From a virus, in the IMG/VR virus record IMGVR_UViG_3300035501_000484, positions 64,001 through 128,000 of that record: 64,000 nucleotides of DNA; one strand, written 5' to 3'. The notes under the pieces are model-generated. The model saw only the letters and a program-made list of their open reading frames with translations, was not told where the DNA came from and did not search any database. Made by a program: the position numbers and the translations under genes. Positions 1,929 to 15,676 of this stretch are shown one piece after another. The first letter of the stretch is position 1; every line of letters begins with the position of its first letter.

Positions 1929-2049
1929 ATTTATTAAGATTTGGCGGGAATTACTAAATTTTATATATTTGTGAGGATTTGGCTGGAATTAATAAAATAA
2001 TAAAAATAAGTTGGCGGATTTTGTTGATGTTAAGAGTATGAGGGTTAGA

Positions 2050-2230
2050 TAAGAGAAGGTTATGTTTTAGGTTGGAAGAGAGTGGATAAATATAATATAA
2101 TATATAATTATTTGAGTGGGTTAGAGTGAAATATATTGTATAATTAGTATAATATTATAGAGAGGTGTTATATAATAATAATATAATATAATATATAATA
2201 TATTAATTTATATAATTTTAATGGAGTATT
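2050..2230. repeat. extreme AT-rich (TA)n-like tract; candidate DNA-unwinding element
   Basis: About 180 bp almost purely A/T with repeated 'ataatataatatataat' units. It follows the iteron-like repeats. Confidence 0.45.
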
Positions 2231-2379
2231 TATCGTATTTAATTAAGTTTAATAAGCAGTTTTATATAATTTAGCAAATATTTAACAAACATTTAGGCAG
2301 TAGAGGTGCGACCGGTATCAAGGCTCATGCAACCCTGGCCGCGACCATAGACACTCAATATTCGCTTTCCGCATTAAAA

Positions 2380-2403
2380 AAAGAGCCTTAGTGAAGGCTC
2401 TTT
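2380..2403 (-). terminator. rho-independent terminator (bidirectional form)
   Basis: AAAGAGCCTT-agtg-AAGGCTCTTT with an A7 run upstream on plus (a T-run on minus). Confidence 0.6.
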
Positions 2404-2759
2404 AGGAACTCCGCAATTATATCATCTGGATTCTTATCTTTTGTATTTACTTTTGTTACTTTAATTTCGACTGGGGCAATCTCATTCTCTAGTACCTTTA
2501 ATATCTCTACCATACCATCAAATGTTTCATCTGTAAGTGAAAATGGCTCTGATATGCCAAGAGCGACCATATATCCATCAACTGCGTGAATTACATTAGC
2601 TCTAGCTAACTCTATAGTCTCATTCTTTGTTGCCTCTTCTTGCTCTTGTTTTATCTCATCTAAGGCTGTTGCTATATCCTCTTCAATCTGATTAAGGATA
2701 TCATCTGAAGTCAACCCCTGCTTTAATAAGTCTTTTATTGGTAAGTCTTTGAAGTTCAT
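2388..2759 (-). CDS. hypothetical acidic early protein
   Basis: 123-aa ORF. Terminator hairpin 2380-2403 overlaps its stop codon, with an A-run upstream on plus (a T-run on minus). Confidence 0.6.
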   Translation of the reverse strand: MNFKDLPIKDLLKQGLTSDDILNQIEEDIATALDEIKQEQEEATKNETIELARANVIHAVDGYMVALGISEPFSLTDETFDGMVEILKVLENEIAPVEIKVTKVNTKDKNPDDIIAEFLKSLH

Positions 2760-3022
2760 ATATATATCATTTCTCCTTTTAATTATTTTATTTCTTTACT
2801 TTATATAAATATTATAACAAAAATTTTTATATTTTTCAAATGTGAGAGTGAGGCGGAATTTTCTATTATTGAACTTAGTTAGCTCCTAAAAATTGTGCTA
2901 TGAAAACAGTTTTATGAGTATTTGTCAGAAAGTAGCAAATTGCTAAAATTATCGAGGCAAATTTTGGTGCGTAGAAAAAATAGCTTTTTTTAATATTATA
3001 TCAAAAATTTTTGTGAATGTCA

Positions 3023-3116
3023 AATAACTAGCAAAAAGGCGGGCATATCAGGTAATTTCGGGATTTCGGTCGCCGGGCGAAAGGTCAAACAACTAGCGAA
3101 AAAAGGGGCATATGGG
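3023..3116. repeat. pair of ~30-bp direct repeats
   Basis: aaataactagcaaaaaggcgggcatatcagg at 3023-3052 and aaacaactagcgaaaaaaggggcatatgggg at 3087-3116, followed by a 9-bp-stem hairpin at 3134-3158. Confidence 0.45.
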
Positions 3117-3281
3117 GTGTGGGACGCGAACTCGGAGCGTCTCTAAAGAAGACGCTCCTGCAAGTATAACATCTCAACCGCACTTTGTCAATAGGTAAAA
3201 TTAATAAAATTTTTATTGATTTTTGTATATATTTTTCTTGACTTTTCGCTCGCACGTGCGGTTTACATAAGAAAAGAGAGG

Positions 3282-3545
3282 TTAGTCCTCTCTTTCAATA
3301 CTAAAGCAATCAATTTTACTTAAAGTTTGCAAAATTTCTGCAATTTCATCATCACATTTAACAATTATAAATTTTTTATCAACATAATAGTGAATTATTT
3401 TACAATTTTTTAAATTTTTGATTAAATTTAATATATTTTGATTAAAATCTGCCTTAAAAGTATCAAATAAATTAATTTTTATAGTATTTTTCATGTTTAA
3501 CCCTCTTTTCTGCGGTTTTGGCGGTATATAACCGCCTATCCGCAC
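3282..3545 (-). CDS. hypothetical early protein
   Basis: 87-aa ORF. Hairpin 3274-3294 overlaps the stop codon. Start overlaps the upstream gene's stop. Confidence 0.5.
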   Translation of the reverse strand: MRIGGYIPPKPQKRGLNMKNTIKINLFDTFKADFNQNILNLIKNLKNCKIIHYYVDKKFIIVKCDDEIAEILQTLSKIDCFSIERED

Positions 3546-3964
3546 TACTTCTTTTCTTTTGGCTTCCTTGTCTGTATTAAGTCTAATTTAAAATTGTCAT
3601 TTCCAATTGTAAATGTAATTAATTTACCCTTATTAACAATCTCTATATTTTCAGCAAACTTAGGAAGTAAATTAGCGATTTCCGCAATCACCATTTCTTT
3701 AGTAGGATTTTCTTTGTGACATCTTTCCTTTTGTGTTTTCTTTTGTGTAATATCTTTAGCTTGATGAATAGTAGCTGTAATTTTACTATCTTTAGCTTTC
3801 TTATCAAGTTCAATTTGTTCATCATTATCTAAATAACCTTCGTCCTCTAGCCACATTTCTATAGCCTCATCTTTTGTAAGCTCAAGATTTTTCATTGACT
3901 TTTCAATCTCTTTATCGGGGATTTTAATTGTTTTACCATTGAAATTGTAGTTCATATTAAGCAC
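3545..3964 (-). CDS. hypothetical early protein (paralog of 5543..5899)
   Basis: 139 aa. C-terminal half aligns by eye with 5543..5899 (…EIVNKGKLITFTIGNDNFKLDL versus …IKIINPQHEIQIKIGNNDYSITL). Its own promoter lies at about 4020-4060. Confidence 0.55.
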   Translation of the reverse strand: MLNMNYNFNGKTIKIPDKEIEKSMKNLELTKDEAIEMWLEDEGYLDNDEQIELDKKAKDSKITATIHQAKDITQKKTQKERCHKENPTKEMVIAEIANLLPKFAENIEIVNKGKLITFTIGNDNFKLDLIQTRKPKEKK

Positions 3965-4162
3965 CTCTCTTTTCTTTTCTTATATAAATATTATAACATA
4001 AAAATTTTTAAAAATCAATAGAAAATTTTAATTTTGTCAAATTTTTTTAATAGCTTTATTCATCCTTCCTTTTGTCTATATATATAGTATACATCATTTC
4101 AGGATTTTAAGCAATAGGCAAAATAAACAATAATGCAGTTAAAAATTTGTTGAATATACCTA

Positions 4163-4250
4163 TTGACAGGTCTAGGCTCGCCCGCGGAGAGAAGCGTATG
4201 CGGGCGAGCCTGCGAGCAATTAAAAAAGCCACTTATTTAAGTGGCTTTTA
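4163..4250 (+). ncRNA. hairpin-element family, copy A (subtype 2)
   Basis: TTGACAGG at 4163-4170 directly abuts a 12-bp GC-rich stem (4174-4185 and 4200-4211). Loop GGAGAGAAGCGTAT. Bidirectional terminator at 4227-4250. Conserved upstream segment at about 4100-4160 (…aaaatttgttgaatat…). Confidence 0.55.
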
Positions 4251-4271
4251 TCTGTGGGGCTTTTTCTCACT

Positions 4272-4670
4272 CTATGCAAGTGAGAAAAATGCCTTTTTCT
4301 TATCCTCAGTTCTTACAACCTCTCCAGTCTTAACCAACTTTGCAACCAAAGCTGATAATTTCTGATTTGTCATTGTTTTAGTTTCATCACCCTCTACATA
4401 AGCCTGTAGTCTGGTATCTACCATAAGCTCTGAAATTGTAACAGCTTTATTTAAATCTGCGAGAACCTCTTTAATAGTTACATAAATCTTCTCATTGGCA
4501 ACCTGTGTTTTAGTATTGCCACTCTTATTAGACTTTTTCTGCAAAAGCTCTAACTCATGGTTGATGAAGGCGAGAATGTCAGCCTTGTTAGCTGTATCAG
4601 AAGCCTCTACAATTTTTGCTACCATGTTAAAATAATCTTTCTTAGTTACCTTTACTGTTGAGTTTGTCAT
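4272..4670 (-). CDS. hypothetical early protein, family A (paralog of 8666..9076)
   Basis: 132 aa. Clearly homologous to the 8666..9076 product (same length, many identical blocks: ANKADILAFI…LLQKKSNKSGNTKTQ…KTMTNQKLSAL…VVRTEDKKKAFFSLA). Tandem strong promoters at 4728-4756 and 4869-4912. Terminator at 4227-4250. Confidence 0.7.
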   Translation of the reverse strand: MTNSTVKVTKKDYFNMVAKIVEASDTANKADILAFINHELELLQKKSNKSGNTKTQVANEKIYVTIKEVLADLNKAVTISELMVDTRLQAYVEGDETKTMTNQKLSALVAKLVKTGEVVRTEDKKKAFFSLA

Positions 4671-4727
4671 AATTCATTACCTCTTTCTTTCTTAAAATTT
4701 AATTAATTGGTTTCCTTTGATATATTT

Positions 4728-4756
4728 ATTATATCATTTCTTTATTCAGTTGTCAA
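4728..4756 (-). promoter_or_regulatory. early promoter (example of about 30 near-identical minus-strand promoters)
   Basis: Minus strand: TTGACA (rc of 4751-4756), 17 nt, TATAAT (rc of 4728-4733), followed by AAATATAT. The plus-strand signature 'atatatttattata…(a/t)ttgtcaag' recurs upstream of almost every minus-strand early gene between 2.7 and 16.1 kb. Often in tandem, for example 4869-4912, 9125-9166 and 9213-9253. Confidence 0.65.
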
Positions 4757-5063
4757 GTGTTTTTTTTAAATTTTTTCTTGAGATTTTAAACTCTTGAAAT
4801 TGTCTGTTAGTGTTATCTGTTGCTAGCAAACTTGTTTTCACTAAAACTATTAAGACGCTTTTCTTTATTTCTTATATATTTATTATATCATAATGAAATT
4901 TATTTGTCAAGCATTTTTTTTAAAAATTTTAATTTTTTTAGTGCTTGCTTTTTTCTTTTCTTCATTTGATATATTTATTATATCAAAAATTTTTATTAAT
5001 TACAATAGTTAAAATGACTAAATTTTAGGATAAAAATTTGTTAAATTTTAATGTAATTTTTCC

Positions 5064-5185
5064 TTGACAAAATGCCCAGCGTATGATATAATGGAAGTTC
5101 GGCGTGCCCACGAAGAGAAGCGCCCGTGGGCACGCCTGCCAGTTTCCGCAATAAAAAAGAAGTCTTTTCAGACCTCTTTATTTTT
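5064..5185 (+). ncRNA. hairpin-element family, copy B (subtype 1, own sigma70-like promoter)
   Basis: TTGACA at 5064-5069, 17-nt spacer, TATAAT at 5087-5092. Eight nt later a 12-bp stem GGCGTGCCCACG (5101-5112) pairs with CGTGGGCACGCC (5125-5136). Loop AAGAGAAGCGCC. Terminator at 5157-5185. Confidence 0.6.
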
Positions 5186-5186
5186 T

Positions 5187-5450
5187 CTATTGTTCATAAA
5201 ATGCGTTACCTTCTAAATCTGTAATTGCCATTAAATCACCTGAACCTTTAATAATAGTCAGATTTTCGTGTTCTTTAAAAGACATTTTTTCTTTAAGGTT
5301 TTCGATATATTCATCAATATCCTTTTCTCTTCCCTCTTTATCCTCATAAATAATAGAAGTTCCATATTGATTTGTATATTCGTTACTTTCAAACATGGTC
5401 TCATCAATATCTACTAATACATCAAAACTTACAGTTGCAATTGCTTTCAT
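5187..5450 (-). CDS. hypothetical early protein
   Basis: 87 aa. Followed on the minus strand by terminator hairpin 5157-5185. Confidence 0.55.
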   Translation of the reverse strand: MKAIATVSFDVLVDIDETMFESNEYTNQYGTSIIYEDKEGREKDIDEYIENLKEKMSFKEHENLTIIKGSGDLMAITDLEGNAFYEQ

Positions 5451-5542
5451 TTTAAAATCCTCTCTTTCTTTTTTAAAAGTTTATTTGTTTCATTTGATAT
5501 ATTTATTATAACACTTTATCTTTTGTATGTCAATAGTTTTTA

Positions 5543-5899
5543 TTATTTTTTTCTATGTTTTGTAAGAGTAATTGAATAATCATTATTACCAATTTTAATT
5601 TGAATTTCATGTTGCGGATTAATAATTTTAATTTCATCAGCTATTAGCATTTCAGCAATTACTTTAATAATTTCTACTTTTTCAGTATCAACTTTTAATG
5701 TGCGGTTTGCAGGTTTTTTGCTCTTAATATCTCCCTCATATCGCCTACCATTTGATTTATTTTTTAATTCCATTTCCGCAGCTTCTTCTTTTGTTACTGG
5801 TTCACCATCAGCTTCACATTCTTCCATAATTTGTTTGATTAATTTCTCTTTATCCATTGTTTTAACCTCTCTTTCCTTTTGATATATTAAGTATATCAT
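5543..5899 (-). CDS. hypothetical early protein (paralog of 3545..3964)
   Basis: 118 aa. See the paralog note for 3545..3964. Confidence 0.55.
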   Translation of the reverse strand: MIYLIYQKEREVKTMDKEKLIKQIMEECEADGEPVTKEEAAEMELKNKSNGRRYEGDIKSKKPANRTLKVDTEKVEIIKVIAEMLIADEIKIINPQHEIQIKIGNNDYSITLTKHRKK

Positions 5900-5951
5900 A
5901 CTTTCATTTTAATGTCAATAGGAAATTTGCGACGTGCAAAAAAGACAAGTG

Positions 5952-6671
5952 TTATTTAAACACCTGTCTCAATTCTAATTCTTTTCTTTTCTTTTGTGGC
6001 AACCGCCAACAAGCTGTATTAATAGATTTATCCATTTTCTTATGAGTGGCAAAACATTTTGCCATAATTTCAACTTCAATTTCTACATCTTCTAAACCTG
6101 TATGACTTTCTACAAAATCAGTATAATTTGTAAGATATTTATAACAACATTCTGCCGAAGTTTGAATGTTATTTTTTTCACTAACTAATCCATTCTGTAA
6201 AGCAAATTTTATATATGTAGTTCTATTTAGCACAGTTTGGCAAGCCATGTTCCAAATACAAAAGTATTCAGTCCCAAAAGGAAAAAACCACCTAATTAAT
6301 GATTTACTATGATAGCGAATTGCATTGTTTAAAGCTCTTTTATCAAAGCCCATGTTATAAGCACCAACTTTTTTAATTTTCCATGCTTTCATGTCAGTAT
6401 GTACTTGTTTTCTGATATTAAAAATAGATTTAATTGTTCTGTCACCATTTTTAATATCTTCCCAATATTGAGGAATTTTTTCAGCGAAATATGCACTTTT
6501 CATCATTTCTTGATTATCCAAAAAAGTTTCCGCAACTACATAACTTCTTCTTAAAACAATGTTACCTTTTCTATCTGTGATTGCATATCCAACATCATAA
6601 GGTAGTGGCTGTTCAATTGTGTTCGCTGTTTCTGTGTCAATTACTAAAAAGTATTCTTTTCTTCTTCCCAT
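5952..6671 (-). CDS. DEDDh-type 3'-5' exonuclease (DnaQ-like fold)
   Basis: FLVIDTETAN is an Exo I DxE motif. YNMGFDKRAL is an Exo II motif. HTGLEDVEIE is an Exo III H-x4-D motif. Promoter TTGATT-17-TATAAT lies at 6705-6733 (minus). Confidence 0.75.
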   Translation of the reverse strand: MGRRKEYFLVIDTETANTIEQPLPYDVGYAITDRKGNIVLRRSYVVAETFLDNQEMMKSAYFAEKIPQYWEDIKNGDRTIKSIFNIRKQVHTDMKAWKIKKVGAYNMGFDKRALNNAIRYHSKSLIRWFFPFGTEYFCIWNMACQTVLNRTTYIKFALQNGLVSEKNNIQTSAECCYKYLTNYTDFVESHTGLEDVEIEVEIMAKCFATHKKMDKSINTACWRLPQKKRKELELRQVFK

Positions 6672-6704
6672 GTTTGTTTACCTCTCTTTTTATTTGATAT
6701 ATTT

Positions 6705-6733
6705 ATTATACATCTTTATGGGAAAATAATCAA
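6705..6733 (-). promoter_or_regulatory. early promoter of the exonuclease gene
   Basis: Minus strand: TTGATT (rc of 6728-6733), 17 nt, TATAAT (rc of 6705-6710). Confidence 0.55.
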
Positions 6734-6781
6734 TATACAAAATACACAAAAATGCGGAAGAAAATTTGTTGAATATGTATA

Positions 6782-6872
6782 TTGACAGGAACTGGCAGGC
6801 TGACGTAGAGTAGCGTACGTCAGCCTGCCACCCAATTTAGCAAAAAGAAAGAGAGGTCTGAAAAGACCTCTC
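6782..6872 (+). ncRNA. hairpin-element family, copy C (subtype 2)
   Basis: TTGACAGG at 6782-6789. 15-bp stem 6793-6807 / 6816-6830 (TGGCAGGCTGACGTA…TACGTCAGCCTGCCA). Loop GAGTAGCG. Terminator at 6851-6872. Confidence 0.55.
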
Positions 6873-6876
6873 AAAT

Positions 6877-7080
6877 TTATGCTTCGTAAAATACTAAATC
6901 TCCATTATATACAGATGAAATACTTGTTTTTGTAATTTCGCCATGCGTATTTTTTAAATATTCTTCTAGAAGATTACATTCATCATCAGAAATATTATCT
7001 CTTACCTCGATAAAAGGTTGAATAATATCAACTGGGATATCAATAATTTCATCTGTAAATTTTGTTACTTTTAATTTCAT
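6877..7080 (-). CDS. hypothetical early protein
   Basis: 67-aa ORF. Terminator 6851-6872 lies directly downstream on minus. Confidence 0.5.
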   Translation of the reverse strand: MKLKVTKFTDEIIDIPVDIIQPFIEVRDNISDDECNLLEEYLKNTHGEITKTSISSVYNGDLVFYEA

Positions 7081-7084
7081 ATTT

Positions 7085-7321
7085 TTACACCTCTCTTATA
7101 TTATCAATTGTTAATTCTGCTGATACTTTTGTAACAAACTTTTCTGTAGGAATAAAAAAAGTGTTCCCTATTTCTAAATCAACTGTATTTTGATATTCAT
7201 TATCAACTTTTGTATCATTAATTTTCATACAAATAAATGGTCTTGTACCCCATAAGAATACATCTCCAACACTTAAATCATCAAATTTTGTTTGACCTGT
7301 ATATTTATTATTAATTTTCAT
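7085..7321 (-). CDS. hypothetical early protein
   Basis: 78-aa ORF from the track, packed against the neighbouring genes. Confidence 0.5.
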   Translation of the reverse strand: MKINNKYTGQTKFDDLSVGDVFLWGTRPFICMKINDTKVDNEYQNTVDLEIGNTFFIPTEKFVTKVSAELTIDNIREV

Positions 7322-7324
7322 AAT

Positions 7325-7483
7325 TTAATTTCTCCTCTTATCTGAAATTGGATTTAATAAATATTCATCTTTTAATTTAGTATATTTAGGTTGCGGACTT
7401 ATACCTAAAACCTTTCCTAGTCCAACTGCCTCTTGATATGAAATTACCTCTTTATTTCCTACTACATAAGTTAATTTTGTCAT
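7325..7483 (-). CDS. small hypothetical protein (52 aa, not in ORF track)
   Basis: ATG at 7483 is preceded by AGAGAGGAA. Translation MTKLTYVVGNKEVISYQEAVGLGKVLGISPQPKYTKLKDEYLLNPISDKRRN. Promoter-like repeat at 7505-7550. Confidence 0.4.
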   Translation of the reverse strand: MTKLTYVVGNKEVISYQEAVGLGKVLGISPQPKYTKLKDEYLLNPISDKRRN

Positions 7484-7559
7484 TTTAAAATTCCTCTCTT
7501 TCTTTTTATTTTATATATTTATTATAACATTTTATCTTTTGTATGTCAAGTATTTTTAT

Positions 7560-7820
7560 CTATTCTTCGTATAATACACACCCATTATATTTATCATTGC
7601 TTTCATTGCTTAGAATGTAAACCTCATTTAAACACATTGCTGTACTATCTAAGCCATATTTTTTTGAAATTTCATTAATAATATAATTATATAAATTATT
7701 TTCATCTATTCTATCAGTAACATAATCATTTGTATCACATGCCTTTAAATAAGGCTCAATAGTTGTTTTATCAGCTATATCTAATTTTATCGAAGCTCTT
7801 AATTCTACTTGTACTTTCAT
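7560..7820 (-). CDS. hypothetical early protein
   Basis: 86-aa ORF. Minus-strand promoter repeat (atatatttattata…gtcaag) lies upstream at 7835-7885. Confidence 0.5.
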   Translation of the reverse strand: MKVQVELRASIKLDIADKTTIEPYLKACDTNDYVTDRIDENNLYNYIINEISKKYGLDSTAMCLNEVYILSNESNDKYNGCVLYEE

Positions 7821-7907
7821 ATTTATACCTCTCTTTCATTTGATATATTTATTATACTACTTTATCTTTTGTATGTCAAGTATTTTTTTAAATTTTTTCT
7901 TTATTAT

Positions 7908-8177
7908 CTAATCTCTTTTGTAGTTCCTCAACTTCTTTATTTGTTTTTCCCATAAGTTCCAATTTTTATAAGCGTAATTCATAATCTCTACAGCGTGTTG
8001 TACAAACATTTGTTTACTAGCAATTTCACATAACCATTGGAATACTTGATAAATTTCAATTACATAAGGACTTTTTTCAAAGTCTGAAAAATGATATACA
8101 GTGTCGGGGTGCTTAGTGCTACCACCCCAACATTCACATACTAAATCATTTTCATTATTTTTAAAAATCCTAACCAT
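7908..8177 (-). CDS. hypothetical early protein
   Basis: 89-aa ORF. Upstream promoter repeat at 8205-8250. Confidence 0.5.
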   Translation of the reverse strand: MVRIFKNNENDLVCECWGGSTKHPDTVYHFSDFEKSPYVIEIYQVFQWLCEIASKQMFVQHAVEIMNYAYKNWNLWEKQIKKLRNYKRD

Positions 8178-8219
8178 TTTTTGTTACCTCTCTTTTCTTT
8201 TTTATTTATCTTATATATA

Positions 8220-8408
8220 TTAATTATAATAAAATTCTTTTAATTTGTCAAGTGTTTTTTCATTTTCTTTTTTTAATTGATACATTCTATTTCCTAAACA
8301 AAACAGGCAACCGCCATGACAGCGACAACTTTTATCAATTTGCTCGCAGTATTTATAATAAGGTTTTCTGTGTTCCCTCCCATATTTGATAGCTTTATCC
8401 ATGCTCAT
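8220..8408 (-). CDS. small Cys-rich protein (possible zinc-binding)
   Basis: 62 aa containing CEQIDKSCRCHGGCLFC. Confidence 0.45.
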   Translation of the reverse strand: MSMDKAIKYGREHRKPYYKYCEQIDKSCRCHGGCLFCLGNRMYQLKKENEKTLDKLKEFYYN

Positions 8409-8516
8409 TTTTATTTACCTCTCTTCCTTTTCTTCATATAGTATACACCTAATACGGGATTTTTACAATAGGCAAATAGACAAATTTTCTGCGGAAAATT
8501 TATGCAACATTACTAC

Positions 8517-8600
8517 TTGACAGGACTTGGGTCGCTCACATAGAGGAGCGTATGTGAGCGACCCATGCAAGAAAAGCCTTGGGAATTTTCCAAGGCTTTT
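8517..8600 (+). ncRNA. hairpin-element family, copy D (subtype 2)
   Basis: TTGACAGG at 8517-8524. 15-bp stem 8528-8542 / 8551-8565 (TGGGTCGCTCACATA…TATGTGAGCGACCCA). Loop GAGGAGCG. Terminator at 8574-8600. Confidence 0.55.
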
Positions 8601-8665
8601 AATTTATTCATTTATTAAATTTTTATTAAATTTGCAAGGCGGATTTGCTCCGCCTTGCTTTTCTC

Positions 8666-9076
8666 TTAGGCAAGTGAGAAAAATGCCTTTTTCTTATCCT
8701 CGGTTCTTACAACCTCATTTGTAGCACACAATTTCTTAACTAGTGCTGATAGTTTCTGATTTGTCATGGTCTTAGTTTCAGTACCTTCTACATAAGTCTT
8801 TAATCTATCATCAGTCATAAGCTCTGAAATTGTAACAGGCTTATCAGTTTCAGCAAGAACAGTCTTAATAGTATCTAGGATAGCTTCATTTGCCTGCTGT
8901 GTCTTAGTGTTACCACTCTTATTAGATTTCTTCTGTAGAAGTTCAACCTCATGGTCGATAAAAGCTAAGATGTCGGCTTTATTAGCGGTTTCCACACTTT
9001 CTACAATATTTCTTACCATTTCGAAATACTGTGCCTTTGTTACCTTTACTACCTTTGTTGTGTTTGTGTTTGTCAT
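8666..9076 (-). CDS. hypothetical early protein, family A (paralog of 4272..4670)
   Basis: 136 aa, homologous to the 4272..4670 product. Tandem promoters at 9125-9166 and 9213-9253. Downstream hairpins at 8633-8657 and 8574-8600. Confidence 0.7.
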   Translation of the reverse strand: MTNTNTTKVVKVTKAQYFEMVRNIVESVETANKADILAFIDHEVELLQKKSNKSGNTKTQQANEAILDTIKTVLAETDKPVTISELMTDDRLKTYVEGTETKTMTNQKLSALVKKLCATNEVVRTEDKKKAFFSLA

Positions 9077-9651
9077 AATTCATTACCTCTTTCTTTCTTT
9101 AAAATTATTTGTTTTTGTTTCCTTTAATATATTTATTATATCATTTCTTTATTCAGTTGTCAAGACTTTTTTTAAAAATCTTTTTAAGATTTTTCTTTTC
9201 TCTTTTGTTTTTCTATATATTTATTATACTATTTTATTTTTTGTTTGTCAAGAGTTTTTTATTTTTTTTGTTGTGGGAATTACTTTACATAATTCCCAGC
9301 AACTGCCTTGAGGCTCCCATCAGGATTGAAAAAAATAACATTATCTTGAATAACTCTAATTCCTTTAGCTCTTGCCTCAGCTCTAAAAACATAATCACTT
9401 TTATACTTTTTTAAAAAATCTGCTTTACTCATTTTTGTTTACCTCTTTCCTTTTCTTTTTATATATTTATTATATCATTTCTTATAAGGTTTGTCAAGAC
9501 TTTTTTTAAAATTTTTTATTTTTTTCTTGGTGTTGTTTCTGTCTTTCCCTTACCTTATATAAATATTATACTAAAATTTTTTATTAATTACAATAGTTAA
9601 AATGACTAAAATTATAGGATTATTTTTGTGTATTTTTTTTATTAAAAATCC

Positions 9652-9771
9652 TTGACAAAAAGTGCGGCGAGTGGTATAATAGAATTTTCGGGCAGCCACG
9701 TAGAGCAGCGTACGTGGCTGCCCCGTCAAGAATAAAAAAGAAAAGAGAGGTCTGAAAAGACCTCTCTAAGC
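9652..9771 (+). ncRNA. hairpin-element family, copy E (subtype 1 promoter)
   Basis: TTGACA at 9652-9657, 17-nt spacer, TATAAT at 9675-9680. Stem GGGCAGCCACGTA (9690-9702) pairs with TACGTGGCTGCCC (9711-9723). Loop GAGCAGCG. Terminator at 9748-9771. Confidence 0.6.
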
Positions 9772-10074
9772 ATAATCACCCTCATTATCTTGCCATTCTT
9801 CTTTTGTAATGATATCAAAATTACCCCAACAATCTGACCTAAAAAATTCTTGCGCCTGCTCGATAGCGTCATCATAATCTTCTAAGGTTTCATAGTCATC
9901 ACTATCGATATCTTCTGTTGCTAAATACATTAATGACTCTGTATGGTCTTGGACTAATTCATCTAAGTATTCATTCAAATGTTCTTTTGTTTGCTCTTGT
10001 TTAAAACAGATATATTTATCCTCATCAAAACCGCAGTAAGGAGTTGTTAAATAAAAATGAACGTATTGTTCCAT
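9766..10074 (-). CDS. hypothetical highly acidic early protein
   Basis: 102 aa, D/E-rich (DSDDYETLEDYDDAIEQAQEF). Long 5' UTR with 21-bp tandem repeats at 10102-10146. Promoter at about 10170-10215. Confidence 0.55.
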   Translation of the reverse strand: MEQYVHFYLTTPYCGFDEDKYICFKQEQTKEHLNEYLDELVQDHTESLMYLATEDIDSDDYETLEDYDDAIEQAQEFFRSDCWGNFDIITKEEWQDNEGDYA

Positions 10075-10212
10075 ATTTTCACCTTCTTTCTTTTAGGGCT
10101 GAACTTCTTTTCCTAAGCAATCAACTTCTTTACCAAGAAATCAATCGCCTGTACTTGTTAGAAGTCCGACACCCTTTATTTATATTTATTATATCATTTT
10201 ATTTTTCTTTTG

Positions 10213-10455
10213 TCAATAGATTTTATCAATTTTCATTGTTGTAATAGAAAAACAGTCTATAGGAGATAAACGACACACATCTTCTAATCGGTAGTATTTT
10301 CCATTTTCATCAAAAAAATCATCATCAGTTCTTTCAGCAATTTTAGTATTAATACAATTTTTAGCTTTTTCTTCAGTTGTAAAAATACCTATCGCTTTTT
10401 CACAACCATTTGCTATGTCAATGCACTCATTAACTATATACAATTTATTTATCAT
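10213..10455 (-). CDS. hypothetical early protein
   Basis: 80-aa ORF. Promoter repeat at 10470-10510. Confidence 0.5.
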   Translation of the reverse strand: MINKLYIVNECIDIANGCEKAIGIFTTEEKAKNCINTKIAERTDDDFFDENGKYYRLEDVCRLSPIDCFSITTMKIDKIY

Positions 10456-10506
10456 ATTTGATTGCCTCTCTTTTATTTGATATATTTATTATAGCATTTT
10501 ATTTTT

Positions 10507-10728
10507 TTATTTATCGCCCCATTTTAATTCAACTTTTCCAAAAGTTATTTTACAAGTAATAAGAATAAAAAGAAGTTCTTTATAACTTAAAATTGGAATA
10601 CAAGCAAAATATCCATTAAGAATAATTAATACTTGTTTAATTAATAATGGTGGAATAGCAATAAAGATAATTAATACTAATATTAATTTAACAATGCTAT
10701 TTACTATTTTTATATACTCTTCGTTCAT
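10507..10728 (-). CDS. small membrane protein
   Basis: 73 aa with two hydrophobic helices. Promoter TTGACC-17-TATACT at 10762-10790 (minus). Confidence 0.45.
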   Translation of the reverse strand: MNEEYIKIVNSIVKLILVLIIFIAIPPLLIKQVLIILNGYFACIPILSYKELLFILITCKITFGKVELKWGDK

Positions 10729-10761
10729 TTTTTTGTTACCTCTCTTTCATTTGATAATATA

Positions 10762-10790
10762 AGTATATCATAATATAGGATTAAGGTCAA
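10762..10790 (-). promoter_or_regulatory. early promoter, divergent from hairpin element F
   Basis: Minus strand: TTGACC (rc of 10785-10790), 17 nt, TATACT (rc of 10762-10767). It is back-to-back with the conserved upstream segment of the plus-strand hairpin module. Confidence 0.5.
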
Positions 10791-10839
10791 TGTACAGAAT
10801 AACTAAAATTTTGGTAAAAAATTTGTGCAACATTACTAC

Positions 10840-10920
10840 TTGACAGGAACTGGCTCAGCAACGTAGAGTAGCGTACGTTGCTGAGCCACTCAAAAGAAAA
10901 AAGAGGCTCAAGCCTCTCTT
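10840..10920 (+). ncRNA. hairpin-element family, copy F (subtype 2)
   Basis: TTGACAGG at 10840-10847. 15-bp stem 10851-10865 / 10874-10888 (TGGCTCAGCAACGTA…TACGTTGCTGAGCCA). Loop GAGTAGCG, identical to copy C, whereas the stems differ by compensatory changes. Terminator at 10899-10920. Confidence 0.55.
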
Positions 10921-10930
10921 AATAAACTAT

Positions 10931-11320
10931 TTACATTTTTAAACCTCTTTCCATAAGATATTGTATAGCCTTTTCACTGTCAAACCAGTTTAAAACGACT
11001 GATAAAGGTGGATTATCCTCTTTAAATTCGACAGTCATATACATATTATCTAATTGTTTAGTTTTCCATTCTTTTATGTCTTTGATATGTTTTATTGTCA
11101 TTGAATTAAAAAATGCAATTACTTGACCTTTTTTAAATTGCCATATATTAAAAGGTAAAAATATCCCATACTTACTATAATTTTCTTTTAAATTATCCCA
11201 TGTAAAATAAATTTTTTGATTTTGGATATTTTTTTCATCTGCCAAAGTTCTATTTGTAAAAGAGCTTATTAATTCATCTTTATAGTAAAATTTAAAGAAC
11301 CCTATATAAAAATTTGTCAT
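10931..11320 (-). CDS. hypothetical early protein
   Basis: 129-aa ORF. Terminator 10899-10920 downstream. Confidence 0.55.
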   Translation of the reverse strand: MTNFYIGFFKFYYKDELISSFTNRTLADEKNIQNQKIYFTWDNLKENYSKYGIFLPFNIWQFKKGQVIAFFNSMTIKHIKDIKEWKTKQLDNMYMTVEFKEDNPPLSVVLNWFDSEKAIQYLMERGLKM

Positions 11321-11324
11321 TTTA

Positions 11325-11450
11325 TTACCTCTCTTTTTTCTTTAATTCTTTTAATTTGTTAATTTGTTCGCCATATGTTGGCGGTTTGCCATTTACCGCT
11401 TTATATCTCCATATCCAGTTATTTAGAACTTGTTGAATTTTATCTGTCAT
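11325..11450 (-). CDS. small hypothetical protein (41 aa, not in ORF track)
   Basis: ATG at 11450 preceded by GAAGG. Translation MTDKIQQVLNNWIWRYKAVNGKPPTYGEQINKLKELKKKER. Confidence 0.3.
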   Translation of the reverse strand: MTDKIQQVLNNWIWRYKAVNGKPPTYGEQINKLKELKKKER

Positions 11451-11516
11451 AACCGCCAACCTTCTTTCTTTTCTTTATATATTTATTATACTACTTTATT
11501 TATCATTTGTCAACAG

Positions 11517-11795
11517 TTATTCTTCAACCACTGTTAAAAAATTTAAACATTTAGATTTTTCATCATACAAAATATGCAAGTGTCCTTCGTCTGCCACACA
11601 TTTCATAGTAGAGTGATTAATGACTTCTAACATTGTTAAGTCAGACATTTCTACATTTTCTTCTAAAGATACGCTATCTACAATATGTGGGATTATGATT
11701 TCATTCTCCGACTTCTCAATAAAATCAACTTCCATGAATGATAAAAAATTTTTAATTCTAGCAAAACTATTTCTAATAAAAATATTGTGTTCCAT
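11517..11795 (-). CDS. hypothetical early protein
   Basis: 92-aa ORF. Promoter-like sequence at 11830-11870. Confidence 0.5.
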   Translation of the reverse strand: MEHNIFIRNSFARIKNFLSFMEVDFIEKSENEIIIPHIVDSVSLEENVEMSDLTMLEVINHSTMKCVADEGHLHILYDEKSKCLNFLTVVEE

Positions 11796-11881
11796 TTTAT
11801 TACCTCTTTCTTTAAATGTTTTTTGTTTACATTTATATTATCTCTTTTGTATGTCAAGCATTTTAATTAAATCTTTTTCTA

Positions 11882-12349
11882 CTAGTTGCGATATTCCGCA
11901 ACTAGTAAATCAACTAATTTAATTAAAATATTTTCATTTGCATTAATTGTATCGCCTAAATTCCAACCAATTCTGATTTTTTCATTGTCATCTATTAAAA
12001 TTTGATAGCCGCCCTTTTTTCTAGTGCAATCGGCTTTTGTAGTGCCATATTTTACAAGATGAATTTCATCATATGGAAACTGATATTTTGCAAGCCATTC
12101 TTTTTTTGCTTTTCTAACTTTTTCATCATATTCTTTTGAGCTATCTTTTGCCAACCAACTTGTGATTACAATTTCCCAACCATTAGTTTTTAATAATCCT
12201 AAGATACTTGCAAGCGTGTCCATATCATACATTGGTTTTGCAATTTCATATGGTCTTGCATTTTCACTTCTCAAATCAACTAACCAATTTTCAACTCCAT
12301 ATAAATTTGCTAAAGTGCCGTCCATGTCAAATACTAATACTTTATTCAT
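11882..12349 (-). CDS. HAD-superfamily phosphatase, 5'(3')-deoxyribonucleotidase-like
   Basis: N-terminal VLVFDMDGTLANL matches the HAD motif I (DxDGT). Size and organisation match NT5C/YorS-like nucleotidases. Confidence 0.65.
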   Translation of the reverse strand: MNKVLVFDMDGTLANLYGVENWLVDLRSENARPYEIAKPMYDMDTLASILGLLKTNGWEIVITSWLAKDSSKEYDEKVRKAKKEWLAKYQFPYDEIHLVKYGTTKADCTRKKGGYQILIDDNEKIRIGWNLGDTINANENILIKLVDLLVAEYRN

Positions 12350-12442
12350 TTTTATTACCTCTCTTTTCTTTTCTTTATATATTTATTATAATACTTTATT
12401 TTTTATTTGTCAATAGTTTTTTTGAAAAAAGCTAAATTTTTT

Positions 12443-12889
12443 TTATTTAGCTTTTTTCAATTTTTCTAGCGTTCTTTCAACTACTATTTGAGCACCATTA
12501 AATTTAATTTGCACTTGTTTACCATTAATTTCTAAATCACCACTTACATAAAATGGTACATTGTCTTTACCTCTAAATTCTTGACCATTCATTTCAGAAA
12601 TAATTTTTTCAAACTGTACACCCTTATTATAATCACCATTTAAAATGTTTTCATTTCCAATTGATACAGCTCCTTTTTTAATTAATTGTTTTTGATAATT
12701 TTGAGGCAATCTTAATTGTAATTTTGCACAACCGCCCTTTTTACTACTTTCATGCTCAACTCTCATGTATCTTGGCATAATTTCGTTAACTTCTATCATA
12801 TAAACTTCATGTTTATAAATAAATCCTAAAATATAGCTATCTGCGGCTGAAAATTTTCTATAATTTCTAATCATTGTTTGTTTTGTCAT
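12443..12889 (-). CDS. hypothetical early protein
   Basis: 148-aa ORF. Promoter at about 12915-12960. Confidence 0.55.
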   Translation of the reverse strand: MTKQTMIRNYRKFSAADSYILGFIYKHEVYMIEVNEIMPRYMRVEHESSKKGGCAKLQLRLPQNYQKQLIKKGAVSIGNENILNGDYNKGVQFEKIISEMNGQEFRGKDNVPFYVSGDLEINGKQVQIKFNGAQIVVERTLEKLKKAK

Positions 12890-13174
12890 GGTCTTTTACC
12901 TCTTTCCTTTTCTTTATATATTTATTATAGCACGTTTAATGTGACTTGTCAACTACTTTTTTAAAATTTTTTTATTTTCCCCAATGGGGCTGTCAGTCAC
13001 CTTAAACCAACCGCCTAGCCATATACTAAACGACCAATCCAAGTAGTGTGACCTCCGCAACCCCTTTCCTTTATCTTATATATATATTATACTCCCACCA
13101 ACCGCAGAAGTCAATATACAAAATGACTAAAATTTCGGGATAAAATTTATGCAATTTTTTTCATCTTTTTCTCT

Positions 13175-13288
13175 TGACAAAAGTTGCTGGGTATGATATA
13201 ATAGATTTTTCGGCGTGCTGGCGAAGAGCAGCGTCCGCAAGCACGCCTTGGAAAATAAAAAGAAAAGAGAGGTTTTTAACCTCTCTTA
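13175..13288 (+). ncRNA. hairpin-element family, copy G (subtype 1 promoter)
   Basis: TTGACA at 13175-13180, 17-nt spacer, TATAAT at 13197-13202. Imperfect stem GGCGTGCTGGCG (13212-13223) with TCCGCAAGCACGCC (13234-13247). Loop AAGAGCAGCG. Terminator at 13266-13288. Confidence 0.55.
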
Positions 13289-13291
13289 TAA

Positions 13292-13516
13292 TTAATTTTT
13301 AATTAAGCCTTCATTAATAAGTATTTCATAAAACAATTTGCAAGTATCTTTATATTCTTCATCATTTTCAGCTATATATTTATAATCATTTTCACTAGCT
13401 TCATCTGGTACACCTTCAGCAATCCATAATTCAAAATTTTCTTCATCTTGCACTTCATCTCTTATGTATTTATCCATACTTTTTAAACACTGTACCTTTG
13501 CTTCTATTATTGTCAT
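13292..13516 (-). CDS. hypothetical acidic early protein
   Basis: 74 aa. Terminator 13266-13288 downstream. Confidence 0.5.
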   Translation of the reverse strand: MTIIEAKVQCLKSMDKYIRDEVQDEENFELWIAEGVPDEASENDYKYIAENDEEYKDTCKLFYEILINEGLIKN

Positions 13517-13597
13517 TTTGTTTACCTCTCTTTCCTTATCTTATAAATATATTATAATATAAATTTGTAAGTATGTCAATCCTTTTTATAAAATTTT

Positions 13598-13717
13598 TTA
13601 AATTATTTTAATGTAAAATAATCCATTACTAATTGAATAAGTAAAATCATACTGATTAACTTCTAAAAATCTTTTCACTTTTTCAAATGCCTCTCTATTT
13701 GTATACATTATTGCCAT
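13598..13717 (-). CDS. small hypothetical protein (39 aa, not in ORF track)
   Basis: ATG at 13717 with AAGAGAGGTAAAAT RBS. Translation MAIMYTNREAFEKVKRFLEVNQYDFTYSISNGLFYIKII. Confidence 0.3.
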   Translation of the reverse strand: MAIMYTNREAFEKVKRFLEVNQYDFTYSISNGLFYIKII

Positions 13718-13784
13718 TATATTTTACCTCTCTTTTCTTTATATATTTATTATAACATTTTATCTTTTGTATGTCAAGTATTTT

Positions 13785-13973
13785 TTATTCTTCTTCCATT
13801 TCATTTTCAATGTAGCTTTCAAATGTATTAAAGCCTGTTCTAGCATATACTATATTATCTAATATTGTGTTCCAATCGCCATTACAAATACATCTAACTA
13901 AATTAATTTCATTTGCGGTTGCAATTCCATATTCTATTATCATATCATATTTAATACATTCGTTTGTGTTCAT
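13785..13973 (-). CDS. hypothetical early protein
   Basis: 62-aa ORF. Promoter-like sequence at 13995-14045. Confidence 0.45.
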   Translation of the reverse strand: MNTNECIKYDMIIEYGIATANEINLVRCICNGDWNTILDNIVYARTGFNTFESYIENEMEEE

Positions 13974-14053
13974 TTTTTATTACCTCTCTTTTCTTTTCTT
14001 TATATATATAGTATACACCTTGCTATTTATATTGTCAAGACTTTTTTTAAATT

Positions 14054-14236
14054 TTCTTGAGCGGGAGTCGAACCCGCATTTACATTGTGCGTCGCATTAA
14101 GGATTACCACAGTATATTTATGTACCCAATTGTACAACCTTGCCTATCACCTGCTACCTGTTTCGCCATGAATTTACATAGGAATCGAACCTACACAGAC
14201 AGAACGCCAACAGCTTTTCCATTAAGCTATCAAGAA
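14054..14236 (-). ncRNA. tRNA-like composite element (two T-arms, one D-arm, long-range acceptor pairing); not a canonical tRNA
   Basis: Minus strand. Candidate 5' acceptor strand UUCUUGA is the rc of 14230-14236. Then UA, then D-arm GCUU-AAUGGAA-AAGC (rc of 14213-14227). T-arm 2 GUAGG-UUCGAUU-CCUAU is the rc of 14178-14194. T-arm 1 GCGGG-UUCGACU-CCCGC is the rc of 14061-14077. It is followed at once by UCAAGAA (rc of 14054-14060), which is exactly complementary to the candidate 5' acceptor strand. An insertion of about 120 nt separates the D-arm region from T-arm 1. No standard anticodon arm was found by eye. Confidence 0.35.
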
Positions 14237-14300
14237 ATAATTAATTTATTTTCTATAATTATAATACCATGTTTTTATTAATTTGTCAATAGTTTTTTTA

Positions 14301-14444
14301 TTATTTTTTATAAGTATACATAATAGTAAAGCCTGTTCTTACATCAGTATACATTGTGCAAAAAGCAATGTTTGGATTATTCTTTACTTTATTATAATAA
14401 TTAATCATTTGACCTTTGAATTGGAATGTTTTTGTATATGTCAT
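14301..14444 (-). CDS. small hypothetical protein (47 aa, not in ORF track)
   Basis: ATG at 14444 with AGAGAGGTAAACACC RBS. Translation MTYTKTFQFKGQMINYYNKVKNNPNIAFCTMYTDVRTGFTIMYTYKK. Confidence 0.3.
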   Translation of the reverse strand: MTYTKTFQFKGQMINYYNKVKNNPNIAFCTMYTDVRTGFTIMYTYKK

Positions 14445-14883
14445 GGTGTTTACCTCTCTTTCTCTCTTTCTATATTTATTATAGCACGTTTTCAGAAGTC
14501 TGTCAAGAGATTTTTTAAAAAAATTTTTTTATTTTCTATTCAGTTCTCTTTCCTTACCTTCTATATATAGTATACTACATTATACTAATAGAGTCAATAT
14601 ACAAAATGCACAAAATAAAATAATAAATTTTGTATAAAATGCTGAAATGCGGGAACCGCCTTACGAACCTAAGTTCTCGTTTTCTAACTGGAATTAGTTG
14701 CAACTAACCATGATAAGGCAAAACGAAAGCTGCGCGGCAGCTTTCGACCCGCCCAATTGTTTGAATTTTAGGAACAAAATAAAAAAGACCAAAAAACTCG
14801 TTTTTCACAAAATTTTTCTAGCCTTAGGTATCTTGGAGCTGAGCCGACCCGCACATGACCATGTACGAAATCGCTTGAAAGAA

Positions 14884-15051
14884 TTATTTCAAGAATGTAG
14901 CAATTGCTTTAAAACATACGTCCGCATTATCTTGAGAATGTGTATCTTCTTGTTCGCTGAAATAATTCATTGATGCATTAAGTAAATCTTTTACTGGTAT
15001 AAACTCAAATACTAACTGTAATGCGGCGAGTTCATTCAAATTATTGCCCAT
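14884..15051 (-). CDS. small hypothetical protein (55 aa, not in ORF track)
   Basis: ATG at 15051 with AAGGGAG RBS. Translation MGNNLNELAALQLVFEFIPVKDLLNASMNYFSEQEDTHSQDNADVCFKAIATFLK. Confidence 0.35.
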   Translation of the reverse strand: MGNNLNELAALQLVFEFIPVKDLLNASMNYFSEQEDTHSQDNADVCFKAIATFLK

Positions 15052-15195
15052 TGCATAAACTCCCTTCTTTATTTACTTTATATATATATTATATAATAAA
15101 TTTTTTAAAAAATCAATAAAAGAAAATTAATCAAGCTTTATAGAAACATAGACCGACCGCCCGCATGAAAAGAGAGGTTGAAAAACCTCTCTTAT

Positions 15196-15468: not shown

Positions 15469-15537
15469 TTTATTTACCTCTCTTTATATATTTATTATAA
15501 TACGCTTAATTATAAGTTTATTAAGATTTCAGCCTAT

Positions 15538-15672: not shown

Positions 15673-15676
15673 AATT

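Follow-up and report, generated by a model that had tools for sequence, protein, structure and literature searches.

Why should a stretch of phage DNA with a G+C content of ~29% carry a set of G+C-rich palindromes among its early genes, each tied to a promoter sequence that faces away from those genes? The question is raised by positions 64,001 to 128,000 of IMG/VR virus record IMGVR_UViG_3300035501_000484, a stretch of 64,000 nucleotides (hereafter the window) from an uncultured gut phage with a genome of ~140 kb. Small minus-strand genes, the majority with a consensus TTGACA-17-TATAAT promoter of their own, span ~2.4–18.8 kb of the window. The original prediction, made from the letters of the DNA, described seven plus-strand modules among them (here A–G), each with promoter, hairpin and terminator. 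We find that the family is real, well supported by statistics and shared with related phages, and the description of it as paralogous, promoter-linked, structured and antisense to the early genes is supported.

All seven elements are present where they had been placed, as established by reading the sequence directly. The hairpins also emerge from an independent search for perfect inverted repeats rich in G+C, and the late region has nothing comparable. Their stems are 12–15 bp and their loops 8–14 nt long. All lie on the plus strand and fall into two types, according to the promoter sequence in front of them. The type 1 hairpins are B (5101–5136; 12-bp stem, loop AAGAGAAGCGCC), E (9690–9723; 13-bp perfect stem, loop GAGCAGCG) and G (13212–13247; 12-position stem with one G/A mismatch, which is T–A in the strain variant L052, loop AAGAGCAGCGTC). 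The type 2 hairpins are A (4174–4211; 12-bp perfect stem AGGCTCGCCCGC/GCGGGCGAGCCT, loop containing GAGAAGCG), C (6793–6830) and F (10851–10888), each with a 15-bp perfect stem and the loop GAGTAGCG, and D (8528–8565; 15-bp perfect stem, loop GAGGAGCG). A common motif occupies positions 4189–4196, 5115–5122, 6808–6815, 8543–8550, 9703–9710, 10866–10873 and 13226–13233 in the loops of A to G, respectively.

This motif had been given as AGAG-N-AGCG; the loop is indeed conserved, with GAG-N-AGCG as its invariant core, whereas the flanking bases vary. Of the eight plus-strand occurrences of GAGNAGCG in the window, seven lie in hairpin loops; the minus strand has none, and ~0.75 would be expected per strand. 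It had also been claimed that the stems differ between copies and stay complementary, with covariation named as the check. Both are borne out by an alignment of the seven copies: 92.4% of the cells of the 15-pair helix are paired, compared with 26–41% when the partner is slid, 10 of the 15 pairs show two-sided change, and none of 500 shuffles reached the observed pairing or covariation score. Each module folds into two hairpins, the G+C-rich one and that of a terminator, with z-scores of −5 to −10. Around the loop, C and F are identical at 18 of 18 bases; their flanks are ~60–65% identical.

The promoter and terminator calls used here are consensus matches from a scan. The TTGACA-17-TATAAT promoters proposed for B (5064–5092, TG-extended), E (9652–9680) and G (13174–13202) match the consensus at 12 of 12 positions on the plus strand and end 8–9 nt before the stem, which begins 8 nt on in B and 9 nt on in E and G. 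They are the only plus-strand promoters of sigma-70 type with 12/12 matches in 3900–13400, and each is followed by a hairpin, which is true of none of the 13 perfect minus-strand promoters in the same interval. A, C, D and F can be aligned with these three modules minus the ~25 nt that hold the −10 element, leaving the order TTGACAGG, 3 nt, stem. The absence of a −10 element from these four copies was thus read correctly. On the plus strand, TTGACAGG lies at 4163–4170 in A (a −35 element only, homologous to that of type 1, with the ~25 nt carrying the −10 absent), at 6782–6789 in C, at 8517–8524 in D (−35 only) and at 10840–10847 in F. For C and F the scan adds TTGACA-18-TAGAGT (10/12), the second hexamer of which lies inside the loop in C. 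The order along the plus strand is A2-B1-C2-D2-E1-F2-G1, where the digit gives the type. Two ways of supplying type 2 with a −10 element were considered and rejected. A −10 inside the loop (TTGACA-18-TAGAGT) fits C and F; A, D and the −35-only copies of the related contig L046 do not fit it. Cruciform extrusion juxtaposing −10 and −35 would need a suitable downstream hexamer, which is absent.

The hairpins themselves are not terminators. That they are unlike ordinary ones had been foreseen: a U-tract follows them on neither strand, no intrinsic terminator (G+C stem, U-tract within 0–2 nt) is called at any of the seven on either strand, and the terminators that are called are separate hairpins 6–20 nt further on. 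These mainly serve the converging minus-strand genes. The terminator after A (4224–4249, both strands, by direct reading) has an A-run before and a T-run after its stem and ends gene 4272–4670; that after B (5156–5179, minus strand) pairs fully on the minus strand only, owing to G–U, has T-runs on both sides and ends gene 5187–5450; and that after D (8572–8600, both strands), with a second hairpin and T-run at 8634–8658, ends gene 8666–9076. After C (6851–6872), E (9744–9767) and F (10899–10920) the T-run is found only on the minus strand, and the genes ended are 6877–7080, 9766–10074 and 10931–11320; the terminator after G (13265–13287) has its T-run on the minus strand and ends gene 13292–13516. 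In the scan, D is the one called for the plus strand, whereas the calls for the minus strand are B, C, E, F and G. The modules had been credited with bidirectional terminators, which holds for A, B and D, with T-runs both ways, and fails for C, E, F and G, which have minus-strand terminators only. Hairpin, minus-strand terminator and the promoter cassette described below are associated one-to-one in the window, and the early terminator that lacks a cassette (12422–12460) also lacks a hairpin.

Read along the minus strand, the layout is operon Y, its terminator, the hairpin, the antisense promoter or its −35 element, a shared block, a promoter (P_X) with a weak −35 element, and operon X. That each module stands back-to-back with a minus-strand early promoter had been predicted, and P_X was found in seven of seven. 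It lies at 4086–4114 in A (TTGCTT-17-TATACT; seen by eye, under the scan threshold) and, by the scan, at 4977–5005 in B (TTGTAA-17-TATAAT), 6705–6733 in C (TTGATT-17-TATAAT, driving gene 5952–6671), 8440–8468 in D (TTGTAA-17-TATACT), 9565–9593 in E (TTGTAA-17-TATAAT), 10762–10790 in F (TTGACC-17-TATACT) and 13086–13114 in G (TTGACT-17-TATAAT). All seven have a non-consensus −35 element (TTGCTT, TTGTAA three times, TTGATT, TTGACC and TTGACT), in contrast to the 13 perfect promoters elsewhere on the minus strand of 3900–13400; the boundary thus seems to separate differently controlled units. The segment between the two promoters, exemplified by 13110–13173 in G (CAATATACAAAATGACTAAAATTTCGGGATAAAATTTATGCAA), is homologous in all seven modules and in relatives. 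It corresponds to what had been described as a conserved AT-rich upstream segment; conserved it is, but it consists of the −35 and upstream region of the divergent minus-strand promoter together with the shared block. A further copy of the block, at 16126–16178, is a 21-nt inverted repeat with 95% complementarity, and in the related contigs L034 and L035 the block contains the inverted repeat TTGCACAAA-N14-TTTGTGCAA. These inverted repeats point to a symmetric two-way cassette, probably with a dimeric regulator. On the pattern of its sequence, then, the module is the non-coding arm of a symmetric two-way promoter cassette at the boundary of two minus-strand early operons.

The cassette is not peculiar to this phage. 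Relatives were collected by an exact-pattern scan of IMG/VR, which yielded L013, and by protein-anchored searches and look-ups, which yielded L034–L042, L044–L046 and L059/L060. The exact loop pattern gave 33 matches in IMG/VR, 32 by chance and one in a true relative, L013; the same architecture is present in ~15 related uncultured phage contigs, the proteins of which are only 34–79% identical. L013 (40% G+C) has five modules, all with TTGACA-17-TATAAT, a distance of 7–8 nt, a 12–15-bp stem, a loop of 12–14 nt and a terminator for the opposite strand. Among 34 non-redundant modules with promoter and hairpin, from the window and related contigs, the −10 element stands 7–9 nt from the stem in 26, and the promoter strand is nearly always opposite to the early genes. 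At some sites the hairpin is flanked by a full promoter and, across from it, by a bare TTGAC (L039 12438 and 15235; L045 3962; L046 9312). In L036–38, perfect promoters on both strands face each other across one short G+C hairpin, with ~34–40 bp between their −10 elements (~8560–8600 in L037 and L038; 8543–8625 and 12343–12437 in L036). Between L037 and L038 the asymmetric core of this hairpin is exactly inverted, the flanking promoters being unchanged, and in L036 the core is shortened.

The loops fall into classes. G-W-G-R-AGCG is found in the window, L013 and part of L039, and GACCC-type loops (GCGACCCAT, GCAACCCAT, ATGACCCGC, GTGACCGAG, AGGACCC and TGGACCGTG) in L034, L035, L044, L045 and L059/60. 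The loop lies on the promoter-sense strand in all seven copies of the window and three of three in L013 (GAG-N-AGCG / G-W-G-R-AGCG), and in seven of eight copies of GACCC type. Inversion is mechanically easy, as L037 and L038 show, yet orientation is uniform in all seven copies of the window, which argues for selection on it. In the strain variants L052 and L054 (90–97% identical), the loop changes only at position N (A>T in B, T>C in C); in the stems, F has a compensatory change of A–T to G–C, the G/A mismatch of G is the T–A pair mentioned above, and D gains outer pairs. When modules are compared for the functional strand, G–U stands against A–C at 3 to 0, numbers too small to decide the matter. 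Relative to the window, gene replacements in L052 start at the ends of modules B (~5171) and F (~10921); the arrangement suggests that the cassettes are recombination joints for the shuffling of early genes.

The hairpin family is undescribed. The original prediction knew of no described element of this kind, and the window has no match in Rfam 15 at gathering thresholds; Rfam searches by E value of 2000–14000, 13500–17000 and 1–4000 gave sub-threshold matches at chance level, none on the hairpins as such, and we found no described equivalent of the hairpin cassettes in the literature. The family is best filed with phage early regulatory cassettes or small-RNA genes. The nearest such cassettes are the PeSLs ('promoter-early stem-loops') that Arbiol et al. 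reportedly described in 2010 for T4-type phages. In general terms their description, a stem-loop joined to an early promoter of host type and recurring between small early open reading frames (ORFs), applies here too: both are short repeated cassettes among the small early ORFs of a hyperplastic region, with strain mosaic breakpoints at or near them (here at the ends of B and F in the comparison with L052). Unlike in PeSLs, the hairpin here is not a terminator but lies 7–9 nt past a promoter that faces away from the genes, its loop is conserved and oriented, and the cassette is two-way. Other likenesses failed. CRISPR-repeat mimics (solitary repeats or RNA anti-CRISPRs) copy one host repeat, stem included, and here one genome has seven different stems. 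N4-type hairpin early promoters serve a giant virion RNA polymerase and have a 5–7-bp stem and a 3-nt loop; the only giant ORF of the window (36591–44981, 2,796 aa) encodes a tape-measure protein (PF10145, E = 5.5 × 10−28), and the stems are 12–15 bp and the loops 8–14 nt long. The loop as a Shine–Dalgarno mimic, Chi site, tRNA D-arm, signal recognition particle or sarcin–ricin mimic fits at most one or two copies each, with the variable N deciding.

What, then, would the hairpin be for? As a tentative preference, we read the hairpins as 5′-clamped small or antisense RNAs with the loop as a recognition site. Consensus promoters, the fixed spacing of 7–9 nt, the restriction of hairpins to promoters that precede no gene, and the orientation of the loop with the promoter together suggest transcription and an RNA; we infer the transcription itself, its start and end points, the protection of the 5′ end, and the loop-binding factor and its identity. 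At B, E and G, host RNA polymerase, recognizing a promoter of sigma-A/sigma-70 type, would start 1–3 nt before a G+C clamp of 12–15 bp. The RNA would thus have a nearly flush, very stable hairpin at its 5′ end, and the polymerase would then enter the back of operon Y's terminator. There the RNA may end, giving a two-hairpin RNA of ~80–100 nt (B, and A and D to judge by their terminators). Alternatively, it may run on antisense to operon Y (E and G and, provided that they are transcribed, C and F), since on that side the terminator stem lacks a U-tract. The clamp would protect the RNA against 5′-end-dependent RNases, and the constant GAG-N-AGCG loop, carried on stems that have been replaced, would be the site for a trans-acting factor, a phage or host protein, that decides the fate or use of the hairpin RNAs. 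The type 2 copies with TTGACAGG would be internal hairpins of plus-strand transcripts from an upstream type 1 promoter; F lies downstream of the type 1 promoter E, and the scan finds no plus-strand terminator between them. In the stabilizer stem-loops of ermC, ompA and SP82 early RNAs, too, a strong hairpin stands only a few nucleotides from the 5′ end, an arrangement that in Firmicutes is known to block 5′-end-dependent decay. Those occur singly, on coding mRNAs and with an unconserved loop, whereas the transcripts predicted here are non-coding and the family is multi-copy.

Several observations weigh against hairpin RNAs of this kind. First, in the four −35-only copies the stems are longest and flawless and the loops are conserved, and −35-only copies recur in distant relatives (L046 13971 and 16129; L059 8428 and 5149), which indicates that a hairpin has a value independent of its own promoter. 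With four copies devoid of a usable −10 element and yet the most perfect in their stems, a picture of seven small-RNA genes is incomplete. Second, only one or two of the 97 paired cells in the hairpins of the window are G–U. Stems that are so nearly all Watson–Crick are atypical of selection on RNA alone and fit DNA palindromes or use of both strands, and the near-loop mismatches of B and G, A/C on the plus strand, are G–U on the minus strand. Mismatch-free stems are found in 27 of the 34 modules, a count that the method of finding hairpins biases. Third, the loop is not conserved family-wide, being 3 nt long in L036–38, and its inversion between close relatives is the dynamics of a palindrome and counts against a purely RNA reading. 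Finally, no RNA-binding protein was identified, and the recurrent neighbour resembles DNA-binding regulators most, albeit by weak matches. Compensatory change had been taken to argue for selection on structure; by itself it is no proof of selection on RNA, since the few G–U pairs and the loop inversion fit DNA palindromes.

That neighbour is a protein of ~130 aa, encoded by two paralogous genes, 4272–4670 and 8666–9076, that run towards modules A and D, respectively, as homologous genes do towards modules in L013 and L046. It has 65 homologues, all in uncultured contigs. Its structural model (predicted local distance difference test score, pLDDT, 89) is a helical hairpin followed by a winged helix, weakly similar to MarR/BlaI/ArsR regulators and Z-alpha domains (best E = 4 × 10−3). 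We regard the winged-helix protein as a candidate binder of the cassette or of the hairpin. Each of the two genes is ended by an extra conserved hairpin (4261–4289 and 8634–8677; ..CTCACT..GCAAGTGAGAAAAATGCC) in addition to the module terminator. A broader reading, which we regard as unlikely, would make the hairpins a new promoter-coupled, loop-specific signal, displayed on nascent RNA or on the displaced non-template DNA strand and marking early-operon boundaries in a clade of large Firmicute siphophages. It would recruit a phage factor, for example the winged-helix paralogues encoded beside several modules, to switch the cassette from expression of early genes to processive antisense transcription or to site-specific DNA processing, and the lineage-specific loop codes, GAG-N-AGCG and GACCC, would evolve in step with it.

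The best-placed rival, although we think it improbable, treats the antisense arm as an insulator, or a capped unused arm. Its transcription would block read-through from operon Y, and hairpin and terminator would keep the RNA short and inert, with no function in trans. Polymerase bound at the antisense promoter, or firing from it, would meet the read-through polymerase, so that operon X answers solely to its own promoter, which is weak and regulated. The one-to-one association of hairpin, minus-strand terminator and cassette and the contrast between seven non-consensus P_X and 13 perfect early promoters would both be expected of such a device, as would a dimeric regulator on a symmetric cassette, to which the inverted repeats (16126–16178; L034/L035) point. 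The face-to-face pairs of L036–38 would make sense as polymerase traps. Short convergent non-coding transcripts are said, in work of Ju et al. in 2019, to reinforce bidirectional terminators in bacteria, which counts for this explanation, and Ju, Li and Liu reportedly described convergent pairs of genes and non-coding RNAs with common bidirectional terminators. There, as here, a short antisense transcript would start just past a gene's terminator and run into it; here, however, only A, B and D have two-way terminators, and the 5′ hairpin with its conserved loop has no counterpart in those pairs. An insulator leaves unexplained the conserved, oriented loop sequence, the start of the hairpin exactly at the 5′ end of the transcript, and the survival of perfect stems in the copies whose antisense promoter no longer has a −10 element. 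Moreover, an unwanted promoter could decay, yet the antisense promoters are perfect consensus.

A second rival is that the nascent hairpin, alone or with a phage protein, is a cis-acting element of nut or put type, which modifies the polymerase for antisense read-through and so brings about an early-to-middle shut-off. Collision and double-stranded RNA would silence the early operons, and the type 2 copies would be reloading sites in long transcripts. We consider this rather unlikely. The nut site of phage lambda has a short-stem boxB with a GNRA-like pentaloop (5 bp plus the pentaloop), a single-stranded boxA before it and a protein of N type; the put site of HK022 consists of two adjacent conserved stem-loops of ~70 nt and acts without a protein. 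Both, like the modules, offer a promoter-proximal RNA hairpin able to act on its own polymerase, and in boxB the loop is read by protein and the stem is a scaffold. The promoter-proximal hairpin and the conserved loops on free stems, as in protein-binding RNA hairpins, speak for this rival. So do the position of type 2 copies downstream of type 1 promoters on the same strand, the lack of a plus-strand U-tract in the terminators after C, E, F and G, and an operator-like upstream block that could time the switch. Against it, between 2.4 and 18.9 kb there are no plus-strand genes needing expression, consensus promoters already serve the first plus-strand gene and several late genes, and B is followed by a terminator usable on the plus strand. 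The parts differ as well. The stem is 12–15 bp and the loop 8 nt, sizes unlike those of boxB; a boxA-like single-stranded element and a second conserved hairpin are absent, and only 1–3 nt would precede the hairpin in the RNA; same-strand downstream genes are lacking; and among the early ORFs scanned no antiterminator family and no N-like or Q-like protein was recognized. Identity with lambda nut was rejected on these grounds, and identity with put because what stands second in each module is the terminator hairpin of the adjoining gene, conserved in neither sequence nor spacing.

In a third explanation, quite improbable in our view, the palindrome acts as DNA, either as a cruciform or folded in single-stranded DNA. 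A structure-specific enzyme or primase of the phage would recognize its loop in order to nick, prime or recombine; the single strand could be the non-template strand in transcription or, at a fork moving away from the origin-like region at 16.1–16.9 kb, the template of the lagging strand. Stems nearly free of G–U pairs and mismatches, the asymmetric loop inverted in situ between L037 and L038, the independence of type 2 from a complete promoter, and the placement of all copies on one strand and one side of the iteron/A+T-rich region would suit it. There is also precedent in single-strand origins and in rolling-circle plasmid origins, in the latter of which a G+C-rich cruciform within an A+T-rich replicon has its nick site in the loop (PMC5062986). 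Such origins (pT181 IR-II; ssoA) would share with the modules a functional loop and strand- and orientation-specific action. The 9-mer GCTACTCTA of the pT181 IR-II nick region, a sequence that we verified, occurs on the minus strand of loops C and F, but the match is broken by the variable N in five copies and the hairpin register differs. The single-strand origin ssoA has an RSB sequence resembling TTATGCCGAGAAAATTT and a CS-6 element, TAGCGT (PMC4598088). Only loops C and F contain TAGCGT, the first position being A, G or C elsewhere; both likenesses are confined to two of the seven copies because they depend on the variable N. The RSB sequence has no match with three or fewer mismatches in the window, a blastn search of module D against 72,556 plasmids gave chance-level matches only (E ≥ 0.5), and ssoA was rejected. 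Unlike plasmid origins, the modules comprise seven copies with seven stems in one genome, coupled to double-strand promoters. Neither a Rep (Rep_trans) nor an HUH initiator or nickase gene was recognized among the scanned ORFs of the window or, by Pfam matches, among the called genes in the 10 kb to its right. The fixed 7–9 nt to a consensus double-strand promoter and the orientation of the loop with that promoter point to transcription, and the RuvC-like resolvase that the phage encodes would make extruded cruciforms hazardous.

It is highly improbable that the hairpins are back-up terminators or 3′-end protectors of the minus-strand operons, acting on RNA that has passed the terminator. The hairpin always lies 6–20 nt past a minus-strand terminator, and the G–U pairing of the near-loop mismatches of B and G gives a slightly better fold on that strand. 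But no U-tract follows the hairpin there (the sequence is AAAATTCTATTATA or GTTCCTGTCAA), the cassette-free terminator at 12422–12460 has no hairpin, and neither the constraint on the loop nor the coupling to an antisense promoter is explained. REP/BIME elements, the multi-copy, G+C-rich extragenic palindromes of enterobacteria, also occur in many copies at operon 3′ ends; they have a stem sequence common to the copies, whereas here the stems all differ, the loop is common and each copy is tied to a promoter. Finally, that the hairpins have no function, template-switch 'correction' keeping the palindromes perfect and duplication of the cassette spreading them, is hardly credible: perfect complementarity free of G–U intermediates and loop inversion between close relatives would follow, but the loop is more conserved than its flanks with N alone varying, orientation is consistent, promoter spacing is fixed, and the hairpins are kept across contigs with proteins 34–79% identical.

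If the hairpins act as RNA, as we tentatively prefer, they would constitute an undescribed, multi-copy family of phage non-coding RNAs with a testable recognition loop, in a widespread group of uncultured ~140-kb gut phages, and would offer a handle on early-gene timing in phages that show no obvious switch of polymerase. Action as DNA would make them a rarity, an instance of DNA signalling by hairpins in a double-stranded DNA phage of large size. In both cases, a consensus promoter, 7–9 nt and a perfect G+C palindrome with a lineage-specific loop would form a search rule for operon boundaries and cassettes in unannotated phages. The −35-only copies and the face-to-face promoter pairs would be the most informative experimental targets.

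From 18,964 a plus-strand block begins with a PHROGs 'sigma factor' ORF, followed by terminase, portal, the gene for the tape-measure protein of 2,796 aa and tail genes; beyond the right end of the window come genes for NrdD, RecJ, a helicase and a polymerase of Pol III alpha type. Positions 1–16671 are identical to a JGI metagenome contig, and one protein of the window has an identical copy on a contig of 139,648 bp. The nearest named relatives, at the protein level only, are the human-gut phage phAss-1, for which a Clostridia host has been proposed (PMC10607447), and the ~140-kb Enterococcus phages EF1/VRE9; a DNA search of known phage genomes turned up nothing related to the early region. 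The gene layout of the window recurs in the cultured Enterococcus relative, but 49.7 kb of VRE9_3, including its early region, contains no perfect G+C-rich hairpin, and an earlier look at that region gave one weak promoter with hairpin; a cultured model was thus not found.

The 'sigma factor' ORF (18964–20139, plus strand) owes its name to PHROG 5767 only (E = 1 × 10−55), with no match in Pfam, NCBIfam or PDB sequences, and its C-terminal end is a CxxC...CxxC zinc ribbon like the fingers of endonuclease VII or those associated with HNH. Several late genes have sigma-A-like promoters despite this ORF. An identity as HUH nuclease, raised by one weak PDB match (E = 0.25), was dropped, as Pfam and NCBIfam do not support it. 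Between terminase and portal lies a homing-endonuclease gene with HNH_3 and NUMOD domains (23097–23936, plus strand).

Other non-coding stretches also carry structure. At 3134–3163 on the minus strand, within the non-coding stretch 2760–3280, a seemingly perfect TTGACA-17-TATACT promoter is followed after 4 nt by a 9–10-bp G+C hairpin (GGAGCGTCT/AGACGCTCC). As extra family members, 2270–2405 and 3040–3170 were rejected, their structure being not significant or dissimilar. At 14580–14775 (plus strand), an upstream block of module type (GTCAATATACAAAATGCACAAAAT...) precedes a G+C-rich multi-branched structure of ~125 nt, closed by GCGGG/CCCGC (z = −3.0), with no TTGACA and hairpin; this could represent another kind of non-coding RNA, borne by a cassette's unused arm. 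Two tRNA-like stretches at 14040–14230 (minus strand) have a T-arm-like GGTTCGA(C/T)TCC; ARAGORN calls none, and the Rfam tRNA model gives 20.4 bits (E = 0.77) at 14178–14229. They may be degenerate or interrupted tRNA genes.

The origin-like region at 16120–16930 combines the cassette-block palindrome (16126–16178) with four copies of CTAACTCAAGTTAG spaced 20, 40 and 40 nt apart (16377–16490), A+T-rich tandem repeats (16547–16664) and direct repeats of 34–41 nt (16829–16926). At the other end of the early genes, 1300–2300 is A+T-rich and non-coding, with repeated TTTTGTC(T/G)GGATTTAGC motifs and tandem repeats of ATATA type at 2133–2220; the source contig extends further left, so that the genome does not end here. 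Just left of the window, that contig (L051, 17349–18464) has a gene for an nSTAND3/AAA ATPase, a homologue of which occupies the same place in a 145-kb relative.

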